From positions 72,570-136,569 of IMG/VR virus record IMGVR_UViG_3300014204_000122: 64,000 nucleotides of DNA; one strand, written 5' to 3'. Below the pieces are notes generated by a model. That model worked only from the letters and a program-made list of their open reading frames with translations. It was not told the origin of the DNA and did not search any database. A program made the translations under genes and the position numbers. The stretch is from a virus. Lineage: Duplodnaviria; Caudoviricetes. Shown here one piece after another: positions 5,205 through 54,658 of the stretch (its first letter is position 1; every line of letters starts with the position of its first letter).

Positions 5205-5217
5205 TAAAAATAAAAAG

Positions 5218-5313
5218 TCTAGTGTGAGGGATTCGAACCCTCGGATAATACTACCTGTGTACCACCGCACGCTTCCAAGACGTGCATCTTAAACCTAACT
5301 CGACCAACACTAG
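5218..5313 (-). tRNA. tRNA-Pro(TGG) with long variable arm
   Basis: C1-G72, A73; CACGT-CTTGGAA-GCGTG anticodon arm; long variable region. Confidence 0.8.
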
Positions 5314-5395: not shown

Positions 5396-5404
5396 TCAAA
5401 TTTG

Positions 5405-5489
5405 CTGATTAGGTACGACTCGAACGTACAAGCTCTTTACGAGCACTTGCTTCAAAGACAAGTGTGTTTACCAATTCCACCACTAATCA
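5405..5489 (-). tRNA. tRNA-Gln(TTG) with long variable arm
   Basis: U1-A72, G73; CTTGT-CTTTGAA-GCAAG; GCTC-GTAAA-GAGC variable arm; Leu-like D arm. Confidence 0.85.
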
Positions 5490-5921: not shown

Positions 5922-5958
5922 AAAAAAAAATCTCAATCAAATTACTGATTGAGATTTT
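5922..5958 (-). terminator. Attenuator terminator upstream of tRNA operon 1
   Basis: AAAATCTCAATCA-GTAATT-TGATTGAGA followed by T9 on the minus strand. Confidence 0.88.
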
Positions 5959-5990
5959 CTATTAAAATATGAAATATTAACGTAAAACTT

Positions 5991-6080
5991 TTAAATTTTA
6001 ATATTCAATTTTAAACATGACTCAATCAGGCTGCTTCTGCGCGGCTGTTGAGGTATTTGTATGTTTAAAATTGCGTTCAT
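5991..6080 (-). CDS. Attenuator leader peptide 1, MNAILNIQIPQQPRRSSLIESCLKLNIKI (Ile-AUA/Gln/Pro/Arg-CGN sensor)
   Basis: Run ATA CAA ATA CCT CAA CAG CCG CGC; contains CTGATTGAG complementary to the terminator 5' arm CTCAATCAG. Confidence 0.85.
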   Translation of the reverse strand: MNAILNIQIPQQPRRSSLIESCLKLNIKI

Positions 6081-9070: not shown

Positions 9071-9084
9071 ATTTTTTTATTTAG

Positions 9085-9174
9085 GGTGAAAGACGAGTCA
9101 CGATCTCGCATTAAGTTGTTACACTATTCCAGAACCACAATCTGGTCGGCATCCAATTACCGGCTACTAACACC
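9085..9174 (-). tRNA. tRNA-His(GTG), atypical (long variable region, mismatched acceptor)
   Basis: CCAGA-TTGTGGT-TCTGG; G-1:C73; GTGTTAG/CTTTCAC acceptor. Confidence 0.7.
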
Positions 9175-9390: not shown

Positions 9391-9430
9391 AAAAAAAACC
9401 CTTGATCAATTTATTTAGATCAAGGGTTTT
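9391..9430 (-). terminator. Attenuator terminator upstream of tRNA operon 2
   Basis: AAAACCCTTGATC-loop-GATCAAGGG followed by T8. Confidence 0.88.
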
Positions 9431-9457
9431 TAATATTAACTTTTAAAATTATAGAAA

Positions 9458-9550
9458 TTATCTTTTCGTTAAATCATACCTTGATCCACATCTGCTACTT
9501 GATAACAGGTGTAAATGCGATAACAACGATATGATAACTATTTTTTTCAT
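9458..9550 (-). CDS. Attenuator leader peptide 2, MKKIVIISLLSHLHLLSSSRCGSRYDLTKR (Ser/Leu/His sensor)
   Basis: 12 consecutive Ser/Leu/His codons; GGATCAAGG pairs with the terminator 5' arm CCTTGATC. Confidence 0.88.
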   Translation of the reverse strand: MKKIVIISLLSHLHLLSSSRCGSRYDLTKR

Positions 9551-36442: not shown

Positions 36443-36489
36443 TTTTAAAAAACAGTTATATTTAAATAAAATAATAATTATATATTTCA

Positions 36490-42137: not shown

Positions 42138-42217
42138 TCAAAATAAATTGATTAAAATATTTAATTTTTTTGAGTTAGTTATATTTAAATAAAAAATAAA
42201 CAATAAATTTTTGTAAA

Positions 42218-43690
42218 ATGGACAAAACTAAAATAAAAAAACTATTAACAGAAGATTTTTCTCTTAATTCCCCAATTGAAGTTATAGATGGTGTTGAGGA
42301 TGGAAACATTGAAAATCCAGTAACAGTTAATTTAAAACCAGGGGATATTATTACTGTTATAGATAATGAAGGCTCTAAAAAAGGAGTAGTACAAGTAGCT
42401 GAAAATTCAGGAGATTTAAATGTTGCTATTGAAGATGAAGAAGAATCTTTAGATCAAGATGATTTGGATATTATAGATATTATAGATTCGGAAGATGAAG
42501 AAGAATCTTTAGATCAAGACGATTTAAATATTATAGATTCAGAAGATGAAGATGAAGAACAGGAAGAATCTTTAGAAAGTGAGGATTTACAAAATAAAAT
42601 TGAAGAAATTAAAACTAGTATAGATAACCTACAAGAGGAAATAGAAAATATTGAATTGCAAATATCTGATAACGAAGAAATAGAAAATATAGAAGATAGT
42701 GAAATTGAACTAGATTTAGAGGATGAAGAAGAATCTTTAGATCAAGACGATTTAGATATTATAGATATTATAGATTCAGATGATGAAGAGGATAATTTAA
42801 ACGCAGCAATAGATGAAGTTGAAAGCGAGACAGAAGAAATAAATGAAAGTGATATTTCTGACGATGATGATCTTATTGATATTTCTGATATAAATAATAA
42901 TGATGAAATAGAATTAACAGAAGATATTAATATTAGTTATGATGACGATAAAGAAACTATAGAAGATATAGAAACTTTAGATCAAAATAGCTTAGATACT
43001 AATGATTTAGAAATAGAAGATTTAGAACCAGAAGATGAAGAAGTTGGTTTATCACCAGAGGAATTAGATGCAGCTGGCCTAGGAGATTTAAACCCAACGT
43101 TATCTGACACATCAGAAGAAATTACAGATACTAATATGTTAAATACAGAATTGGAAGATGAAGTTTCTGACGAAACTCTTTCTGATGTAGATGAAGGTGA
43201 AGCTATAAAAAAACAAGAAGATGTGGATGAGTTAGTGGTATCTTTACTTGATGACGAAGAATTAGAATATATTTCTGATTCACCTAATGATGAAATAGAT
43301 CTAAAATTAGAGTCAGTTTCTAAAAAAGAAAAAATGTTACAAGAATCTGTTAAAAAATTAGAACTTGAAAACTATAAACTTTTAAAGGTTAATGGAATTT
43401 TAAATTTATTACCTGATTTGTCTTTAGAAACAAAACAAACATTGGCAGAAAGTTTTGATAAATGTTCAACAACAACACAAGTTAAAAATTTATATAGTAA
43501 AGTTGTTTCAACTGTAAAGGAACATAAAAAACCAAAACTTAATACATTAATTATAGAAAGTAATAAAGGCTATAATACAATAGGTATTCCAATGAAAGAT
43601 AATTTTGATGATAATATTTTAACAGAAGATCAAAAAAGAAAAAATTATTTAATGGGAATAAACGAAAACGAAGAAGATTATTTCGGATAA
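42218..43690 (+). CDS. Prohead scaffold protein (gp22-like), highly acidic, with internal EDEEESLDQDDL repeats
   Basis: Position before MCP; acidic low-complexity region; LELENYKLLKVN...ESFDK C-terminal motif. Confidence 0.75.
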   Translation: MDKTKIKKLLTEDFSLNSPIEVIDGVEDGNIENPVTVNLKPGDIITVIDNEGSKKGVVQVAENSGDLNVAIEDEEESLDQDDLDIIDIIDSEDEEESLDQDDLNIIDSEDEDEEQEESLESEDLQNKIEEIKTSIDNLQEEIENIELQISDNEEIENIEDSEIELDLEDEEESLDQDDLDIIDIIDSDDEEDNLNAAIDEVESETEEINESDISDDDDLIDISDINNNDEIELTEDINISYDDDKETIEDIETLDQNSLDTNDLEIEDLEPEDEEVGLSPEELDAAGLGDLNPTLSDTSEEITDTNMLNTELEDEVSDETLSDVDEGEAIKKQEDVDELVVSLLDDEELEYISDSPNDEIDLKLESVSKKEKMLQESVKKLELENYKLLKVNGILNLLPDLSLETKQTLAESFDKCSTTTQVKNLYSKVVSTVKEHKKPKLNTLIIESNKGYNTIGIPMKDNFDDNILTEDQKRKNYLMGINENEEDYFG

Positions 43691-45600: not shown

Positions 45601-46944
45601 ATGAGGGAAGAAATCCAAAATATTTTAGATAAAGATAAACTATATAATTTAACGAGAAAAAATTATTTAGAAAAAAACTATAAAACAATTTATGATAATT
45701 TATATATGTTTAAAAATATATATTATTTTAATATAGAATTACCCTTTGCCCAATTAGTTTATCTTTATTCTTACGATTTAAAAGAATTACCTGTTTGCTT
45801 AAAGTGTAATAGTAATAAGCTTACTTTTGTATCTTTTTCGCAAGGATATAAAAAATATTGCTCTAAAAAATGCTCAAACAATCACCAAGAAAGAATAGAT
45901 AAGCGTAACCAAACTATTTTAAAAAAATATGGCGTTAAAAACATATCTCAATCTGAAATAATAAAAGAGAAAAAGAGAAAAAATTCTATAGAAAAACATG
46001 GAGTAGATAGTCCGTTAAAATTAAAAGAAATAAGGGATAAATGTGAAGCAACTTGTGTTCTAAAATATGGAGATTATAATGTTTCTAAAGTAAAAGAATT
46101 ATATAATAAGCAACGAATTAAATATCAAAAAACATTAAAAGATAAATATGGAGTAGATCACATTTCTAAAGTAAAGAGTGTACAAGAAAGTAAAGAAAAA
46201 ACATATTTAAAAAATTGGGGTGTTAAAAATCCCTTTTTATCCAAAATTATACAAGATAAAAAAAATAATACAATTCAAGAAAGATATGGAGTTAATAATG
46301 TTGGAAAATTATTAGCAACTATAGATAAAAGAGAAAAAACATATTTAGAAAAGTATGGGGTTAAAAACCCTATGTTGTTATACAAACCGGTTAAAACTTC
46401 TAAAATAGAAACAAAAATTTGCAAATTAATAAATGGAGAAAAATTTAGATTTCAAGGACGTGAATATGACATTAAGGTAGGAAAAGATATATTTGAGATA
46501 GATGGAGATTATTTTCATCCAAAAGAAAAGAAAAACTTAGGTATAATGCAAATGGGTGGATTGATAAATGATTATAGAAAATATAATGCTATTGTAGGTT
46601 CTGAATATAATATTTATAAAATATATACTTCTAATCTACCAAAAAATTTAGAAGGGTTAACAATTGATTTGCTTAAACAACTAAGTTATGAACCCAATTA
46701 TCAAATAAACTATGAAGATGTTTTGATATCCAGTGATTACTTAAAAAAATACGTTAAAGAAAAAGGAGAAAATAAGTTATTTAAATATGTGTTTAAACAA
46801 TTAGTTGATATTTGTATAGAAATAGGAAAATTAAATTTGACAAAAGAAGAAATAGAAGAAAGAGTAAGATATATTTTGTTGAACAAGTTAGATTTTAGTT
46901 TCAACAATATTTTAAATAATTCTTATTTTAAAATAAATAAATAA
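45601..46944 (+). CDS. Putative free-standing homing endonuclease (KYGVxN repeats + PD-(D/E)XK)
   Basis: YCSKKC Zn motif, tandem KYGVxN repeats, EYDI...FEIDGDYFH. Confidence 0.7.
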   Translation: MREEIQNILDKDKLYNLTRKNYLEKNYKTIYDNLYMFKNIYYFNIELPFAQLVYLYSYDLKELPVCLKCNSNKLTFVSFSQGYKKYCSKKCSNNHQERIDKRNQTILKKYGVKNISQSEIIKEKKRKNSIEKHGVDSPLKLKEIRDKCEATCVLKYGDYNVSKVKELYNKQRIKYQKTLKDKYGVDHISKVKSVQESKEKTYLKNWGVKNPFLSKIIQDKKNNTIQERYGVNNVGKLLATIDKREKTYLEKYGVKNPMLLYKPVKTSKIETKICKLINGEKFRFQGREYDIKVGKDIFEIDGDYFHPKEKKNLGIMQMGGLINDYRKYNAIVGSEYNIYKIYTSNLPKNLEGLTIDLLKQLSYEPNYQINYEDVLISSDYLKKYVKEKGENKLFKYVFKQLVDICIEIGKLNLTKEEIEERVRYILLNKLDFSFNNILNNSYFKINK

Positions 46945-48527: not shown

Positions 48528-49994
48528 ATGAAATCAGAAAAAGAAAAACAATTGGAAATACAACTACTTACTGAAAAAATTCAAAATATATCTGGAAAAA
48601 AGGTTATTTTCAAAGAAGAGTTTAATATAGAAGAGGAAGACGATTATTATTTAATAACCTCTTTAGAAGATGAAATAGAAACTGAAGCTTTTATAGATAA
48701 TTCAAAATATATTCAAAATAAATTTCCAAATGAAAAAGTTTTAAAAATTGATTGTGTTTATAATAATGATTTTTTTAAAAAATTTATAGGGTTTTTAAAA
48801 AAGAATAATATTAAATATAATATTAGAAAGGCAAGATTAGATAATTTTTGTAGAATCAATATAAATGTAAAAGATTTAAAATCAACAAACATTTTAAAAG
48901 AAAACGAAGAGAAAACATATAAAATATCAAAAACATATAACGATAAAACTAAAGTTATTGAAGATACTTTAGAAGGATTAATCAAATATTTTAGTTATAC
49001 TTTAGAATCAGGAAAAAGTCATAATAGTTCAATAGATAAAAGACCTAAAACAATTAATAGTCTTATAAGTAATTTAAGAAAAGCTTTTGATGAATTAGAA
49101 GGAGGTTTTTCTAGAACAAGTATTAGGTTAATTAAAGAAAATGTTGAAGTATTAAAAGAAACTATGTCTGCTATCCCTCCTGTTAAAAGTAAAACATCTG
49201 ATTTAGAGAATTTAAGAGCTGCAATTATAGCAGAATATGATGCTATTAATTTATATGATCAAATGGCTAATAATACAAAAAATAGTAAAATTAAAGAAGT
49301 TTTGTTAGATATAGCTAAAGAAGAAAAAACTCATGTAGGTGAATTAGAAGCACTTTTAAAAGACTTTGACAAACAACATGCAGAAGAAGTCGTTTCAGGA
49401 GAAAAAGAGGTTAAAAAAGCTTTAAAAGAAGAAAAAACAACAGTTTTAAAAGAAGCTATTAATCCTAGCAGTTGGAATATGACTAATGTGGCAAATAAAG
49501 TAGAAAGTTATGCAAATGAAAAAAATATACCTTTTGCTAAATTTAAAATTGAAAGAAAACCTTATGGGTATGGAGCTACTAGAACTACAGCTAAATTAAA
49601 AATAGGTTCAAATATAATTCTTATGAAAGTAGATAAAGTACCTGGAATGGGCAATAACGCAAATGACCTTGAGGTATATATGATAGATCCACAAGATGAA
49701 TCTAAAGGTATAAAAATCAGCAACTGGTGTTATTTATCAGATATTCCAAAATTTTTAGATAAATGGTTTGAATCATCTCAAGTTAGTTCTGATATTAAAA
49801 CAATGTCTAAAGAAGAGGTTGAAAAATTAAAATCAGATTTAAAAAAGGCAAGAATTGAAAATAATGAAGAAATAAGTGATGATCAAGCTTTTGATATAGC
49901 AGAAAATATTATAAATGAAAATCCGGGTTTAAAGGAATATTTAACTAGTATAGGAATTAAAGATATACAAGGCTATATAGCTAATTGGATATAA
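48528..49994 (+). CDS. Tagged multidomain protein containing a ferritin-like domain
   Basis: N-terminal tag; LRAAIIAEYDAINLYDQ...DIAKEEKTHVGEL; domains separated by (L/I)KE. Confidence 0.8.
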   Translation: MKSEKEKQLEIQLLTEKIQNISGKKVIFKEEFNIEEEDDYYLITSLEDEIETEAFIDNSKYIQNKFPNEKVLKIDCVYNNDFFKKFIGFLKKNNIKYNIRKARLDNFCRININVKDLKSTNILKENEEKTYKISKTYNDKTKVIEDTLEGLIKYFSYTLESGKSHNSSIDKRPKTINSLISNLRKAFDELEGGFSRTSIRLIKENVEVLKETMSAIPPVKSKTSDLENLRAAIIAEYDAINLYDQMANNTKNSKIKEVLLDIAKEEKTHVGELEALLKDFDKQHAEEVVSGEKEVKKALKEEKTTVLKEAINPSSWNMTNVANKVESYANEKNIPFAKFKIERKPYGYGATRTTAKLKIGSNIILMKVDKVPGMGNNANDLEVYMIDPQDESKGIKISNWCYLSDIPKFLDKWFESSQVSSDIKTMSKEEVEKLKSDLKKARIENNEEISDDQAFDIAENIINENPGLKEYLTSIGIKDIQGYIANWI

Positions 49995-50060
49995 AAAAAT
50001 AAACATTGATAATCAATGAATTATAAATTATTTTAAATTATTTTAAGAAAAAGGTTGTTT

Positions 50061-50175
50061 TGTATTAGAAAAAACCATTATCTTTAGCATAACAAATTAA
50101 GAGAAATAATACACTTTTGTAAAAATTTTTCTTATATTAATAATGAAAAATAAAAAATAGTTATATTTAAAAGAA
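50061..50175 (+). promoter_or_regulatory. Promoter cassette of tRNA operon 3
   Basis: GTATTA-A-run-TATCTTTAG (50079), TTCTTATATTAATAAT and TATTTAAAAGAAA in the same order as at operons 1 and 2. Confidence 0.65.
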
Positions 50176-50191
50176 ACAATAAATAAAAAAA

Positions 50192-50278
50192 ATGAAAAAG
50201 TGGTATACATATAGAACAATTATGACAGCCTTTAATAAAGGGGTAGAGGATTGTGGTGTACTCGATATTCGGATTTAA
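50192..50278 (+). CDS. Attenuator leader peptide 3, MKKWYTYRTIMTAFNKGVEDCGVLDIRI (15-amino-acid sensor)
   Basis: Codons 2-21 contain K,W,Y,T,R(AGA),I(ATT),M,A,F,N,G,V,E,D,C; ATTCGGATTTAAA at the stop pairs with TTTAAACCCGAAT of the terminator. Confidence 0.88.
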   Translation: MKKWYTYRTIMTAFNKGVEDCGVLDIRI

Positions 50279-50303
50279 ACATTAATAAAGTAATTAAATA
50301 TTT

Positions 50304-50337
50304 AAACCCGAATCAGTAAAAAGTTTCGGGTTTTTTT
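50304..50337 (+). terminator. Attenuator terminator upstream of tRNA operon 3
   Basis: AAACCCGAA-loop-TTCGGG followed by T7. Confidence 0.85.
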
Positions 50338-50359
50338 ATCCGGAAAAAAAAATAAAAAA

Positions 50360-50376
50360 AGTTCTTTGACATATTG
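50360..50376 (+). promoter_or_regulatory. boxA-like antitermination element
   Basis: AGTTCTTTGACATATTG resembles rrn leader boxA. Confidence 0.6.
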
Positions 50377-50388
50377 GTATAAAAAAAT

Positions 50389-50477
50389 GGTTCTGTGGTG
50401 AAAGTATCACAAGGCAGTCGATTCACAACAGTGAGGTATCTTCAGTCGTGTTACAGGTTCATATCCTGTCAGAACCA
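50389..50477 (+). ncRNA. Non-canonical tRNA-like element (acceptor, D and T arms; no standard anticodon arm)
   Basis: GGTTCTG/CAGAACC-A, GTGA-AAGTA-TCAC, ACAGG-TTCATAT-CCTGT. Confidence 0.55.
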
Positions 50478-50486
50478 CATAATATT

Positions 50487-50567
50487 GGATCAGTTGAGCA
50501 ATTGGTTGGCTCGCCTGACTGTAGATCAGGTCTGAAAGGCGTGGGGGTTCGAATCCCTCCTGATCCA
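50487..50567 (+). tRNA. tRNA-Tyr(GTA)
   Basis: CCTGA-CTGTAGA-TCAGG. Confidence 0.92.
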
Positions 50568-50841
50568 CATGATATTTTTCACTAGGTTTTGTTAATCTGA
50601 CAAAATAATAAACCTTTAAACATATTAAATAAAAAGTCAGAATAGTTTAATATGGGTTTTAAGACGGTTTAAGCGCCGATAAATTATTCATTCAGTGGAA
50701 AGTAAAGTTTAGTTGTGTAGCATTGTAATTATTTATAATGAATTAAATTTTATGGACTCCGAGATGATCATATATATAGAAAGGTATATAATTTTACAAG
50801 TAGAAGGCTTGTTATTAAAACTTATTTTTTTTAAGAAATAT

Positions 50842-50917
50842 TCCTCTGTAGCTATTAATTGGTTAGAGCGATAAATTGTTAATTTGGGGGTTGTTGGTTC
50901 GAGTCCAACTGGAGGAG
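50842..50917 (+). tRNA. tRNA-Asn(GTT), weak anticodon stem
   Basis: ATAAA-TTGTTAA-TTTGG; TCCTCTG/TGGAGGA-G. Confidence 0.8.
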
Positions 50918-50928
50918 CAAAATAAAAT

Positions 50929-51001
50929 GGATGAGTGGCGTAATTGGTAGCGCAATTGACTGTTAATCAATAGGTTATGGGATCGTACCCCATCTCATCC
51001 G
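50929..51001 (+). tRNA. tRNA-Asn(GTT)
   Basis: ATTGA-CTGTTAA-TCAAT. Confidence 0.9.
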
Positions 51002-51013
51002 CAAACAAAAAAT

Positions 51014-51088
51014 GCCTTGATAGCGCAGGTGGTCAGTTCGCGCTGGACTGAAAATCCAGAGATAGTGGTTCAACTCCACTTCAGGGCA
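51014..51088 (+). tRNA. tRNA-Phe(GAA)
   Basis: CTGGA-CTGAAAA-TCCAG. Confidence 0.9.
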
Positions 51089-51101
51089 CATAAAATAAAA
51101 C

Positions 51102-51186
51102 GCACGAATAGCACGTAACTGGAAGCGTCCTTCTCTTCTAAAGAAGTGACTTTATGTTCTTGAAGGTTCGAATCCTTCTTCGTGTA
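51102..51186 (+). tRNA. tRNA-Arg(TCT) with long variable arm
   Basis: CTTCT-CTTCTAA-AGAAG. Confidence 0.82.
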
Positions 51187-51213
51187 CAATTAAAATAATA
51201 GTTATTATAAAAT

Positions 51214-51284
51214 AGATCTATGGTGTAGTGGTAACATTTTGAGCTCCAACCTCAACGTCCTGCGTTCGAATCGTAGTGGGTCTG
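51214..51284 (+). tRNA. tRNA-Trp(CCA)
   Basis: TTGAG-CTCCAAC-CTCAA. Confidence 0.88.
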
Positions 51285-51302
51285 CAAAAAAATAAAACAT
51301 AT

Positions 51303-51387
51303 GTCACGTTCGACTAGCGGTCCAGGTCGCCAGGTTTTCATCCTGGTTAGAGAAATCTTAACATCGGTTCAAATCCGATACGTGATA
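51303..51387 (+). tRNA. tRNA-Glu(TTC) with long variable arm
   Basis: CCAGG-TTTTCAT-CCTGG; TTAGAGAAATCTTAAC variable region. Confidence 0.85.
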
Positions 51388-51411
51388 CTGTAGATAAAAT
51401 AAATAAAATAA

Positions 51412-51483
51412 CACCCGTTCGACAAGTGGTTAAGTCGTCAGGTTTTCAACCTGGAGTCACGAGTTCAAATCTCGTACGGGTGA
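51412..51483 (+). tRNA. tRNA-Glu(TTC)
   Basis: TCAGG-TTTTCAA-CCTGG. Confidence 0.9.
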
Positions 51484-51489
51484 CTAAAT

Positions 51490-51561
51490 AGTTCGGTGGT
51501 ACAATGGTGGTATAACTCGTTGTCTGCGAGATGGTTAGGGGTTCAAGTCCCCTCCGAACTG
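51490..51561 (+). tRNA. tRNA-Asp(GTC)
   Basis: CTCG-TTGTCTG-CGAG; G73. Confidence 0.82.
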
Positions 51562-51686
51562 CAATAAATTAAATAAATAAATAAAAATTAAATTATAAGT
51601 AAAATGAAAAAACAAATTAAGCAAGTCAAACTTTAGAACAACACCTCTATCAAGGATACGTGTTGTAAAAATTAAAAAATTACAAT

Positions 51687-51759
51687 GCGTTCGTAGCTCA
51701 ATTGGTGGAGCACTCGACTTTTGATCGAGGGGCTGTGAGTTCAATTCTCACCGGACGTA
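51687..51759 (+). tRNA. tRNA-Lys(TTT)
   Basis: CTCGA-CTTTTGA-TCGAG. Confidence 0.9.
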
Positions 51760-51766
51760 CAAGTAT

Positions 51767-51858
51767 GCGTTTGTTCGCTTAGCCCGGTCGAAAGCACCAC
51801 TCTTTTAAAGTGGATAGTTATTATAACTACATCGTAGGTTCAAATCCTACCAGACGTA
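51767..51858 (+). tRNA. tRNA-Lys(TTT) with long variable arm
   Basis: CCACT-CTTTTAA-AGTGG; TAGTTA-TTA-TAACTA arm. Confidence 0.85.
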
Positions 51859-51869
51859 CTTAATTATAT

Positions 51870-51945
51870 AGAGGTATAGCTCAGCCCGGTTTAGAGCAAC
51901 TCTTTTACACAGAGAAGGTCGTTGGTTCGAATCCAGCTATCTCTA
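51870..51945 (+). tRNA. tRNA-Val(TAC)
   Basis: CTCT-TTTACAC-AGAG. Confidence 0.9.
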
Positions 51946-51958
51946 CAAAAAAATAAAT

Positions 51959-52030
51959 GGTCTATTGGTGTTAATGGTAACATGCTACACTGTCTATGTA
52001 GTGCTTTCGGTTCGAATCCGTGATAGACCG
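51959..52030 (+). tRNA. tRNA-Asp(GTC)
   Basis: CTACA-CTGTCTA-TGTAG. Confidence 0.87.
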
Positions 52031-52040
52031 CACAATATAT

Positions 52041-52115
52041 TGGAATATAGCTCAGCCCGGTCAGAGCGCGAAACTGATACTTTCGATGTCGGGGGTTCAA
52101 ATCCCTCTATTCCAA
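52041..52115 (+). tRNA. tRNA-Ile(GAT)
   Basis: CGAAA-CTGATAC-TTTCG. Confidence 0.92.
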
Positions 52116-52193
52116 CATTTTAAAGTAATAATTAATTAAAAAAAATAAAAAAATGAAAACAATAATTGGAGGTGACAGCTTGGTCGCGATTTA

Positions 52194-52670
52194 ATGAAAG
52201 AACAAAGAATTCAACTTAAAAAGAAACAAATTGATAGTAAAAATCATAGAAAGTTACAAAAATATTCTACTAATTTTAATGAAATATTTTCTTTTTTTTT
52301 AAAAAGCTATAGAAAAGGAATTTTAACCTTTTGTGGATCAAACGTTGAAGTAGATTTTGATTATAATGAAGGAAACAGTAAGTTTTGTTTTAGAAAGTAT
52401 GATAATGGTGAATATAAGTTCCAATCTATTAAATCTAAACATCCAAATATTTTAAAATCAGTAATTATAGGAAAGAAAAGTTGGGGATTATTTTTACAAC
52501 AATGGTCAGATGGTATAGTTGATTGGAGTTTTACAGAAGAAGAAATTTTACAAGAGTTTAAAGATAATAATATAACAATTCCTGAACCTTTGTTAAAAGA
52601 TTTTCGTAATGTTATTTTAAAAAAGAAAATTAAAAGAAATGATGAATATTTAAAAAACTGGAGGTTATAA
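52194..52670 (+). CDS. Hypothetical protein embedded in tRNA operon 3
   Basis: 158-aa ORF; TAATG-coupled to a 13-aa mini-ORF at 52153. Confidence 0.7.
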   Translation: MKEQRIQLKKKQIDSKNHRKLQKYSTNFNEIFSFFLKSYRKGILTFCGSNVEVDFDYNEGNSKFCFRKYDNGEYKFQSIKSKHPNILKSVIIGKKSWGLFLQQWSDGIVDWSFTEEEILQEFKDNNITIPEPLLKDFRNVILKKKIKRNDEYLKNWRL

Positions 52671-52868
52671 ATGAAATTAAAAACATTAGAAGAAAAGGAA
52701 GATTATTTAAAACAATTAGCAAAAGAAAGAAATTATAAAAATCTTAATTTAACATTAAATCCAAATAAAAATATTACAAAAGAAATGATCATAGATGATT
52801 TAATATTTTTATTTGAATTAAAAAGAGATAAGAAAATGAAATTAATTTTTACAACTAAAGGTAAATAA
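52671..52868 (+). CDS. Small hypothetical protein
   Basis: Abuts previous ORF. Confidence 0.55.
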   Translation: MKLKTLEEKEDYLKQLAKERNYKNLNLTLNPNKNITKEMIIDDLIFLFELKRDKKMKLIFTTKGK

Positions 52869-52945
52869 TTTTTAAAGAAGTATTTGTGAACATTAACACA
52901 ATGGTAGTAAAAATGTTGATTTTCGGTAATAAGAACCGTTTTTTA

Positions 52946-53019
52946 GGAGAATTAACTCAGCTGACTAGAGTACCTACCTTGCACGTAGGAGGTCATCGGT
53001 TTGAATCCGATATTCTCCA
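52946..53019 (+). tRNA. tRNA-Ala(TGC) (A3-U70 rather than G3-U70)
   Basis: CCTAC-CTTGCAC-GTAGG; GGAGAAT/ATTCTCC-A. Confidence 0.85.
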
Positions 53020-53027
53020 CAAATAAT

Positions 53028-53099
53028 GCAAGAGTAGCTCAGGGATAGAGCGATTGATTACCAATCAATAGGTCGGGATTTTGAAACTCCTCTCTTGCT
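53028..53099 (+). tRNA. tRNA-Gly(ACC)
   Basis: ATTGA-TTACCAA-TCAAT; G1-C72, C2-G71, U73; imperfect T stem. Confidence 0.75.
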
Positions 53100-53209
53100 C
53101 AAATTTTCTCTCCCAAAACAAGATAAATAGGTAGGAGGTAGGTGTGTTAAATCTTTTAACATAAATTTTAAAGTTTTTCTTTTAATTTATCTTGTTTTTT
53201 ATTATTTTT

Positions 53210-53282
53210 GCAAAATGTAGCTTAATTGGCTAAAGCACTTGTCTTCCAAACAGGGGATGCGGATCGTACCCGACATTTTGCT
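53210..53282 (+). tRNA. tRNA-Gly(TCC), apparent 8-bp acceptor and short T stem
   Basis: CTTGT-CTTCCAA-ACAGG; GCAAAATG/CATTTTGC-T. Confidence 0.8.
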
Positions 53283-53317
53283 CATTTAGTTGTAGGATCT
53301 ATAAAACCTTCATATTT

Positions 53318-53390
53318 GCCGAAATAACACAATTGGTAGTGTAGTTGATTTGTAATCAACAGGTTAGGAGTTCAAATCTCCTTTTCGGCT
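53318..53390 (+). tRNA. tRNA-Thr(TGT)
   Basis: GTTGA-TTTGTAA-TCAAC. Confidence 0.9.
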
Positions 53391-53401
53391 CAAAATTATA
53401 T

Positions 53402-53484
53402 TGCGGTGTGCCTGAAGTTGGTATCAGTGAGGTCTCATAAACCTCTGTCGTTTGACCTCGCGGGTTCGAGTCCCGCTGCCGCAA
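53402..53484 (+). tRNA. tRNA-Met(CAT) with extended variable region
   Basis: GAGGT-CTCATAA-ACCTC. Confidence 0.8.
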
Positions 53485-53494
53485 CAAAAAATAT

Positions 53495-53568
53495 GCACAT
53501 ATGCTCGAGTGGTTTATGGGGCTGGTCTGCAAAACCAGTATTCGATGGTTCAAATCCATCTATGTGCT
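53495..53568 (+). tRNA. tRNA-Cys(GCA)
   Basis: CTGGT-CTGCAAA-ACCAG; U73. Confidence 0.9.
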
Positions 53569-53698
53569 CAAAAATATACCAATATGCTTATTTTTTCTTA
53601 TTTTATTTAAAAGATGTTTAAAATTTTTGAAGGTAATAAATAAATTCTTATTTTTAAACTATAAATATAAATGATAGAAAAGAATAAATCAAAAAAAT

Positions 53699-54658
53699 AT
53701 GAGTACAAAAAAAACTACCGACTTTGTTATACCTAATGAATTAGAATCTATTACTCAAGAAATGTTAATAGAATATTGTTTAACACAACCATTTCCAGGA
53801 AGTGCAAAATGGGAATCTCAAAACCCAATATGGGATGCATTTTTGCCTGGAAGTATGTCACCTAGAGATGCTTGGTTTGATAGAGATAAAATAACTAAAG
53901 CAGTTAAGAATATGTATTGGATAATAGGGAAAGGCGAAAAAGAAGGTAAATATTATGATTTTAATCAAAAACATAGAGATTCTTTAAAAACTTGTATTGT
54001 AGAGAATAATAAAATTACACATGCTGATATTGGTATATTGTATAAAGTTTTAACTCGATTTACGGTAGCAAAAATTGCTCCTAAAGTTACTGCCTTACGT
54101 TATTATAACATGTACAATATTATAAAAGAATCTAACATAGATATTTCTTCTGGAGTGTATATGCCAATGGCAGGTTTTGGAGGAATTAAAGAGGCAGCTG
54201 AAGTTTGGTATAAAGAAAATAAAATACAAAAACAAAAAGATAATTGGGATTATTTAATTGAAACTTATGATATAAACGCTAGTTTTTGCAATTATTATGG
54301 TTGGGAAAAGCGTGATATGCTAGCTCAGGTTATAGAAACCGATAAAACTTGTTTAGTTTGTCCTCCTTTTGGAAAAAAATATGAACATTGGAAAGGAACT
54401 CCTGATGATATGGCAGATATAACATTTATAGAATGGTATGATTTAATAAAAAAACATGTAAAAGCAAAAAACTATATAATTGTTGGTCCTGAGATTGATT
54501 TTACAAATAGTGGTTCAAACAAAGGGGTAGACTCTGAAGGAAATAGACGCTGTAGTTTATTCTCTAAAACTGTTGGGATAATGTTGTGGACGGATGAAAT
54601 GATAGCTTTTTTTAAAAATAATAAAGAAGCTAGAGTTAAAGCAGGAATTAAAGAATAA
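53699..54658 (+). CDS. Putative DNA methyltransferase-like protein
   Basis: VYMPMAGFGG (SAM motif I-like), YDIN, VCPPF (motif IV-like). Confidence 0.5.
   Translation: MSTKKTTDFVIPNELESITQEMLIEYCLTQPFPGSAKWESQNPIWDAFLPGSMSPRDAWFDRDKITKAVKNMYWIIGKGEKEGKYYDFNQKHRDSLKTCIVENNKITHADIGILYKVLTRFTVAKIAPKVTALRYYNMYNIIKESNIDISSGVYMPMAGFGGIKEAAEVWYKENKIQKQKDNWDYLIETYDINASFCNYYGWEKRDMLAQVIETDKTCLVCPPFGKKYEHWKGTPDDMADITFIEWYDLIKKHVKAKNYIIVGPEIDFTNSGSNKGVDSEGNRRCSLFSKTVGIMLWTDEMIAFFKNNKEARVKAGIKE

Follow-up and report, generated by a model that had tools for sequence, protein, structure and literature searches.

A candidate leader-peptide attenuator whose codons list the tRNA kinds of a downstream phage array

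One of three tRNA arrays in a phage genome is preceded by a short open reading frame (ORF) that encodes, within 20 codons, exactly the kinds of amino acid served by the tRNAs of that array, and this ORF is followed by a predicted intrinsic terminator. The region is probably a ribosome-mediated (leader-peptide) transcription attenuator that gates the phage tRNA operon, because the leaders covary with the tRNA content of their arrays across phages and do so in a frame-specific manner. The first-pass annotation of this DNA had already read the region as an attenuator, and that reading is now supported comparatively by three matched leaders within the genome, by covariation in a distant relative, by an association across 22 units and by the frame specificity of the match.

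Phage tRNA genes are usually viewed as constitutive add-ons, which either correct for codon usage or replace tRNAs destroyed by defence systems. To our knowledge, the regulation of such genes is largely unknown. If the attenuator reading is true, the oldest known RNA-based control mechanism is extended to tRNA genes, and phages gauge the speed of decoding and adjust their tRNA supply by feedback. The breadth of a leader with 15 kinds of amino acid suggests that what is sensed is the overall capacity for decoding, not a single amino acid. The same layout recurs in many uncultured phages of Bacteroidota, and its apparent presence in the cultured phage phiCbK, for which a partial check was made, makes direct testing possible. 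It also offers a rule for annotation, as the tRNAs that share one transcription unit can be predicted from the mini-ORF ahead of their array.

The genome and tRNA array C

The window, which is the whole stretch of DNA analysed here (64,000 nucleotides), forms the final 64 kb of an IMG/VR record of 136.6 kb, whose GC content is 26%. Every tRNA gene of the record lies inside the window, in three arrays (A, B and C) that between them cover all 20 amino acids. By its major capsid protein, a distant relative of T4 gp23, the phage is nearest among cultured phages to Flavobacterium phage immuto, at 37% identity; a DNA search found no close cultured relative. A search of sequencing runs found the sequence in two DNA runs, of which the near-complete one is a landfill metagenome from which the record may derive, and in no RNA run.

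The first-pass annotation described an operon of 20 tRNAs downstream of leader C, and array C indeed contains 20-21 genes (Table 1). ARAGORN with default settings reports 18 genes, and either Rfam or relaxed ARAGORN adds three. The uncertainty in the count comes with a low-scoring tRNA-like element, in which the acceptor stem and T arm are clear and the anticodon arm is unconvincing, and which relaxed ARAGORN calls Glu(UUC). The tRNA-Gly of unusual anticodon ACC is also present in the relative G001 (L012:1185-1258).

Table 1. Coordinates of the features discussed, as positions in the window
Feature	Coordinates	Strand	Remarks
Promoter-like element	50054-50087	+	TTTG-like box, then TAnnTTTG-like box at 50079-50086 (last base A, not G)
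AT-rich 12-nt motif	50160-50171	+	20 nt upstream of the leader C ATG; found by alignment
Leader ORF C	50192-50278	+	28 codons; ATG at 50192, stop codon TAA at 50276-50278
Antiterminator strand C (region 2)	50267-50279	+	13 nt; overlaps the stop codon
Predicted intrinsic terminator C	50304-50337	+	5' arm 50304-50312, 3' arm 50325-50333, T tract 50331-50337; RNAfold
boxA-like element	50361-50379	+	19 nt; between terminator C and the first tRNA
tRNA array C	50389-53569	+	20-21 genes, 15 amino acids (ARAGORN, Rfam): Tyr, Asn x2, Phe, Arg(UCU), Trp, Glu x2, Asp x2, Lys x2, Val, Ile(GAU), Ala, Gly(ACC), Gly(UCC), Thr, Met, Cys and one tRNA-like element
tRNA-like element	50389-50478		Array C; 90 nt; Rfam 34.6 bits; directly 3' of the boxA-like motif
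tRNA-Asn	50842-50918		Array C; added by Rfam/relaxed ARAGORN
tRNA-Gly(ACC)	53028-53099		Array C; Rfam 53.9 bits, missed by ARAGORN; anticodon read from the fold
Long tRNA-Lys	51767-51859
Long tRNA-Glu	51303-51388
Long tRNA-Gln	5404-5489
Long tRNA-Pro	5217-5313
Long tRNA-His	9084-9173
Long tRNA-Arg(UCU)	51102-51187
Long tRNA-Met	53402-53485
Unit A	5922-6080	-
Leader ORF A	6080-5991	-
Terminator A	5958-5922	-
tRNA array A	5898-5217	-	Pro x3, Gln x2, Ile(UAU), Arg(ACG)
Unit B	9391-9550	-
Leader ORF B	9550-9458	-
Terminator B	9430-9391	-
tRNA array B	9346-8416	-	Ser x3, His x2, Leu x4

The leader ORF and its codon match

Codons 2-21 of leader C (50195-50254) form the putative regulatory block. Lys and Thr are each encoded three times in this block, Tyr twice and twelve other amino acids once, and together these 15 amino acids are exactly the kinds served by array C. 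The earlier observation that 20 codons cover just the amino acids of the array, most of them only once, is therefore borne out, and the match is unique in the genome: when 77,947 stop-free segments of 21 residues were scanned in six frames across the whole 136.6 kb, all 15 kinds and no other were found in only three overlapping segments, each of them on leader C. Under strict wobble rules 19 of the 20 block codons are readable by anticodons of array C, the sole unread codon being GCC, which is set against Ala-UGC. Codon 22, just outside the block, is GGT and fits the tRNA-Gly(ACC) of the array.

Arrays A and B are each preceded by a leader of the same design, and units A, B and C are alike in having an upstream block of ~130 nt, an ORF of 28-30 codons and a terminator. 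Leader A contains an 8-codon run of Ile(ATA), Gln, Pro and Arg(CGC) that is the longest Pro/Arg/Gln/Ile run of the genome. Similarly, leader B contains 12 consecutive Ser, Leu and His codons, the longest Leu/Ser/His run of the genome. The match extends to the choice of synonymous codon, as ATA and CGC in leader A correspond to Ile-UAU and Arg-ACG of array A, and ATT and AGA in leader C correspond to Ile-GAU and Arg-UCU of array C.

Conservation of the match in other phages

A distant relative, G001, with 55% identity in a neighbouring protein, partitions its tRNAs differently from the window, with one array for Gly/Pro/Ala/Gln/Thr, one for Leu/Met/Asn/Asp/Glu/Tyr(/Cys) and one for Trp/His/Phe/Ile/Lys/Arg/Ser/Val. 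Each of its three leaders is enriched in the set of its own array, and every leader ORF contains a copy of the 3' arm of its terminator. Further units were retrieved from IMG/VR with the 19-nt boxA-like sequence (50361-50379) as a probe. This 19-mer lies just 5' of the first tRNA of an array in 28 distinct contexts, and in 23 of them an ORF of 23-45 codons and a terminator are found upstream.

Match statistics were calculated for 22 units from IMG/VR phages, deduplicated at 50% leader identity. Over these units, which partly retain shared ancestry and so are not fully independent phylogenetically, and whose array limits were set by rule with some loci incomplete, the leaders cover 98% of the tRNA kinds of their own array against 78% for mismatched arrays (0/100,000 permutations). 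Coverage of the own kinds is full (100%) in 18 of the 22 leaders, and the mean enrichment z is 1.89 for own and -0.10 for mismatched arrays (22 units; 0/100,000 permutations). Anticodon-level coverage, calculated for the 19 units with such data, is 91% for own and 69% for mismatched arrays (0/100,000). The match is also specific to one reading frame, coverage being 91% in the ORF frame and 58% and 55% in the two others (Wilcoxon p about 1e-4). As the frame was picked solely for its openness, independently of the codon match, this specificity argues for the reading of leader codons by ribosomes.

The ORF is open from ATG to stop in all 27 distinct units, and in 17 of the 27 its 3' part shows significant complementarity (p <= 0.05) to the 5' arm of the terminator. 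The complementary segment is invariably located over the stop codon or within the final ~50 nt of the reading frame. Leaders measure ~23-45 codons irrespective of the size of the array, and arrays of 3-4 kinds have leaders with runs of codons. With its 15 kinds leader C is among the broadest; the broadest other units, on other contigs, serve arrays of up to 17 kinds, 16 of which are present in the leader.

The cultured Caulobacter phage phiCbK (JX100813, 47300-52700) has two candidate units in which an ORF and a terminator precede a block of tRNAs. In one, a short ORF rich in Phe, Val, Ile and Gln leads into an annotated rho-independent terminator (51465-51502) and then tRNAs for Phe, Val, Ile, Ile, Val, Gln and Gln. 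In the other, gp083, a hypothetical protein rich in Ser, Leu, Pro and Lys, is followed by a terminator (49745-49769) and by tRNAs for Pro, Lys, Leu and Ser. Flavobacterium phage immuto has only 3-4 tRNAs and no clear leader. The array examined in crAss001 has a plain TAnnTTTG promoter and neither leader nor terminator, and the boxA-like 19-mer is absent from this phage within 3 mismatches, bar one unrelated site. In the crAss-like phage cr116_1 an ORF of 34 aa within the array was considered as a leader and rejected, being unmatched to the tRNAs and without a terminator.

Terminator and antiterminator

Terminator C consists of a 9-bp stem with a 12-nt loop and a tract of 7 T residues (-11.2 kcal/mol, RNAfold), and termination at this hairpin is a prediction. 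The loop is unusually large, and the hairpin is not flagged by a simple consensus scan, in which loops are limited to 3-8 nt. Terminators of similar form are also found 3' of the leaders in relatives.

The antiterminator strand is complementary, with one mismatch, to 50301-50313, a segment that includes the 5' arm of the terminator. When the leader C codons are masked, which mimics a stalled ribosome, this pairing is the minimum-energy fold. The ribosome-free fold of units B and C is also the antiterminator, and in these units there is no protector hairpin like that of the trp leader. Unit A has the complete set of 1:2, 2:3 and 3:4 alternative pairings (protector, antiterminator and terminator). 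The antiterminator is significant in unit A (z = -4.0, p = 0.005) and in unit B (z = -3.0, p = 0.015). The first-pass annotation placed an antiterminator over the stop codon of leader C, and the geometry is as it described; the pairing, however, is weak for unit C alone, where at -9.8 kcal/mol it is no better than in dinucleotide shuffles (p = 0.18). For this reason the proposed RNA switch in unit C rests mainly on analogy with its sibling units.

The upstream block and the boxA-like element

The promoter-like element of unit C sits within the ~130-nt block that aligns between units A, B and C, and TAnnTTTG boxes occur at the corresponding place upstream of the leaders of relatives. The element is a putative promoter of the Bacteroidota type. 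Since the boxes upstream of the leaders are of the TTTG / TAnnTTTG type, they point to a host within the Bacteroidota; a scan for the sigma-70 consensus was unhelpful, as that type of promoter does not fit this phylum. No TAnnTTTG box is found between the terminator and the first tRNA in any unit of the window. Such a box does lie between the leader terminator and the boxA-like motif in some relatives (L025, L069, L057, L110, L024 and L034), whose arrays may own a second, unattenuated promoter that bypasses the switch.

The AT-rich 12-nt motif is found 15-40 nt upstream of all three leaders and also of several structural genes including the capsid gene (copies at 36446-36480, at 42179-42241 and upstream of 43806). 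The motif may function as a late-type phage promoter or as an element of the 5'UTR. In the former case, each tRNA unit would have two promoters in tandem ahead of the attenuator.

The exact boxA-like 19-mer occurs in >110 IMG/VR contigs, often ~25-30 nt 5' of the first tRNA of an array, and in 119 genome stretches, nearly all of them from Bacteroidota. One copy, on a Flavobacteriales chromosome, separates tRNA-Ala from 23S rRNA, and the remaining genomic copies are outside an rrn context. The element would presumably make the polymerase resistant to termination across the long untranslated array. At L016, L018, L020 and ~40 further IMG/VR loci the 19-mer stands 3' of a distinct, conserved, GC-rich element of ~70 nt, and no tRNAs were found immediately downstream of the 19-mer at these loci.

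Proposed mechanism

From the sequence we infer translation of the leader, termination at the hairpin, a switch between the two RNA folds and a physiological trigger for it. Transcription would start in the conserved upstream block and the 28-codon leader would be translated as it emerges, with the ribosome racing the polymerase as it does in the leaders of trp, his and ilv. A ribosome that decodes codons 2-21 quickly would reach the end of the ORF, where it either covers the antiterminator strand or sits between that strand and its partner. With the strand covered, the terminator would form and the transcript would stop before the tRNAs. If decoding is slow, either through a lag on any codon of the block or through a slight lag on all of them, the strand would be left free. 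It could then pair with the 5' arm of the terminator once this has been made, and the polymerase would pass the boxA-like element into the array.

Production of the array tRNAs is thus probably restricted to times of slow decoding. As these same tRNAs read the test codons, the arrangement would amount to negative feedback on tRNA supply during infection, in a loop that limits itself. A more general proposal, which is tentative and in our judgement may well prove wrong, is that large phages of several bacterial phyla place their arrays under a homeostatic sensor of decoding, each array being gated by a mini-ORF that lists its own anticodons. The phage would in this way replenish precisely the tRNAs in short supply in the infected cell, including any destroyed by anticodon nucleases of the host, and a leader of 15 kinds would serve as a general meter of translational capacity.

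What the leader senses and alternative explanations

Control by one regulatory codon is hyperbolic and insensitive, and many codons give hypersensitivity (Elf and Ehrenberg, PMC1183508). In a toy race model that uses the rates of those authors (PMC1183508), a species represented by a single codon needs at least a 10-fold slow-down for about 50% readthrough, and about 60% is reached once all 20 codons are slowed 1.5-fold. As readthrough in the model is higher for a mild slow-down of all codons, the model suggests that leader C is best suited to a collective shortfall, for example where host tRNAs are inadequate for a phage of 26% GC. It also suggests that loss of one species would trigger leader C only if nearly total. 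The first-pass annotation had taken the use of one codon per species as a design suited to detecting cleavage by nucleases, and this did not find support. With leaders of roughly constant length, one codon per kind is what results when 15 kinds have to fit into about 20 codons, and the model favours a collective slow-down. It is accordingly unlikely, in our estimate, that the attenuator senses the cleavage or near-total loss of single tRNA species by host anticodon nucleases, with its codons acting as 15 tripwires. Such a role would agree with the coverage of all 20 amino acids by the phage tRNAs, with the presence of a matched leader before every array, and with substantial readthrough at a single-codon species only in the regime of near-total loss. 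The far greater sensitivity of the model to mild collective slow-down and the dependence of codon number on array size both speak against it. The search of the 136-kb fragment for tRNA-repair genes found no CCA-adding enzyme and no T4 Rnl1-type ligase, the latter result being uninformative as the same search found none in control genomes either. The sequence, moreover, cannot separate cleavage from plain scarcity of host tRNAs for AT-rich codons.

Two further explanations dispense with attenuation by a translating ribosome. The ORF could be an ordinary small gene or due to chance, the hairpin the terminator of the upstream unit, and the tRNAs expressed from their own promoter without any regulatory link. 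The TAnnTTTG box between terminator and array in some relatives would fit this, as would the lack of significance of the unit C antiterminator on its own and the arrays of crAss001 and crAss-like phages with plain promoters or unrelated small ORFs. Nevertheless it is very improbable, as it leaves unexplained the codon match that is unique in the genome, the covariation of leader and array across phages, the frame specificity and the recurrent copy of the terminator arm within the ORF; in the window, moreover, there is no promoter box between the terminators and the tRNAs. The other possibility is direct, T-box-like sensing, in which codon-like triplets of the leader RNA itself pair with the anticodons of tRNAs and translation is not needed. 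Triplets complementary to the array anticodons are indeed concentrated in the leader, but they fall in one frame that is open from ATG to stop throughout the distinct units, and neither a T-box nor any other Rfam family matches here. For the T-box (RF00230) in particular there is no match at gathering score in the window, including the leader region 50192-50339, and none at E <= 0.1 in 50340-53700. We know of no precedent for an RNA with 15 specifiers, which also counts against direct sensing, and to this explanation we give almost no credence.

Comparison with known systems

The attenuator proposed here has its closest counterparts in the multivalent leaders of enterobacteria, such as those of ilvGMEDA (Ile/Val/Leu) and thr (Thr/Ile), and in trpL, hisL, leuL and pheL. 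It shares with them a short leader ORF that carries the putative signal codons, a predicted intrinsic terminator before the regulated genes and a proposed mutually exclusive antiterminator, such that a ribosome at the end of the ORF would favour termination; unit A also shares the full 1:2, 2:3, 3:4 scheme. In contrast to the enterobacterial systems, the regulated genes would be tRNAs rather than biosynthetic enzymes, and leader C would sample 15 amino acids (16 anticodons) where those leaders sample 1-3. The putative antiterminator strand, which in enterobacteria is downstream of the ORF, lies here within the ORF and over its stop codon. Finally, the present system belongs to a Bacteroidota phage and has a boxA-like element 3' of the terminator.

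In E. coli the pheM leader attenuates pheST, which encodes Phe-tRNA synthetase, according to the supply of charged tRNA. This is similarly a case of leader-peptide attenuation of a component of the decoding apparatus, although pheM concerns one amino acid, a synthetase protein and a cellular gene, whereas here there are 15 kinds, tRNA products and a phage. As in T-box riboswitches (RF00230), the state of tRNA would control readthrough of a terminator before translation-related genes. However, a T-box works without translation and uses its specifier codon and T-box sequence to bind one uncharged tRNA directly, while the match described here is frame-specific and within an ORF. The layout in phiCbK (mini-ORF, terminator, tRNAs) is alike, and the present genome instead splits all 20 amino acids over three units. 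No account of tRNA genes or phage tRNA arrays being controlled by leader-peptide attenuation turned up in a full-text literature search, which covered leader peptides, attenuation and the tRNA arrays or operons of phages. The case would be one of an old mechanism in a new use, in which leader-peptide attenuation is applied to tRNA genes in a broad design of 15 kinds.

Further features of the arrays

An ORF of 158 aa (52194-52670) without a PHROG match is embedded in array C, and a homing-endonuclease-like ORF of 447 aa (45601-46944) is next after the capsid gene. Between tRNA-Gly(ACC) and tRNA-Gly(UCC), at 53118-53200, an 11-nt inverted repeat around ~57 nt is followed by a T tract, as judged by eye; possible roles are internal termination and RNA processing. 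Unusual length (84-97 nt) is seen in seven tRNAs whose types are normally short (Lys, Glu, Gln, Pro, His, Arg-UCU and Met). Alignment of the Lys, Glu, Gln and Pro examples places the extra length in the variable region, where a hairpin is possible. For Lys, Glu, Gln, Pro and His, a copy of normal length with the same anticodon is also present in the same array.
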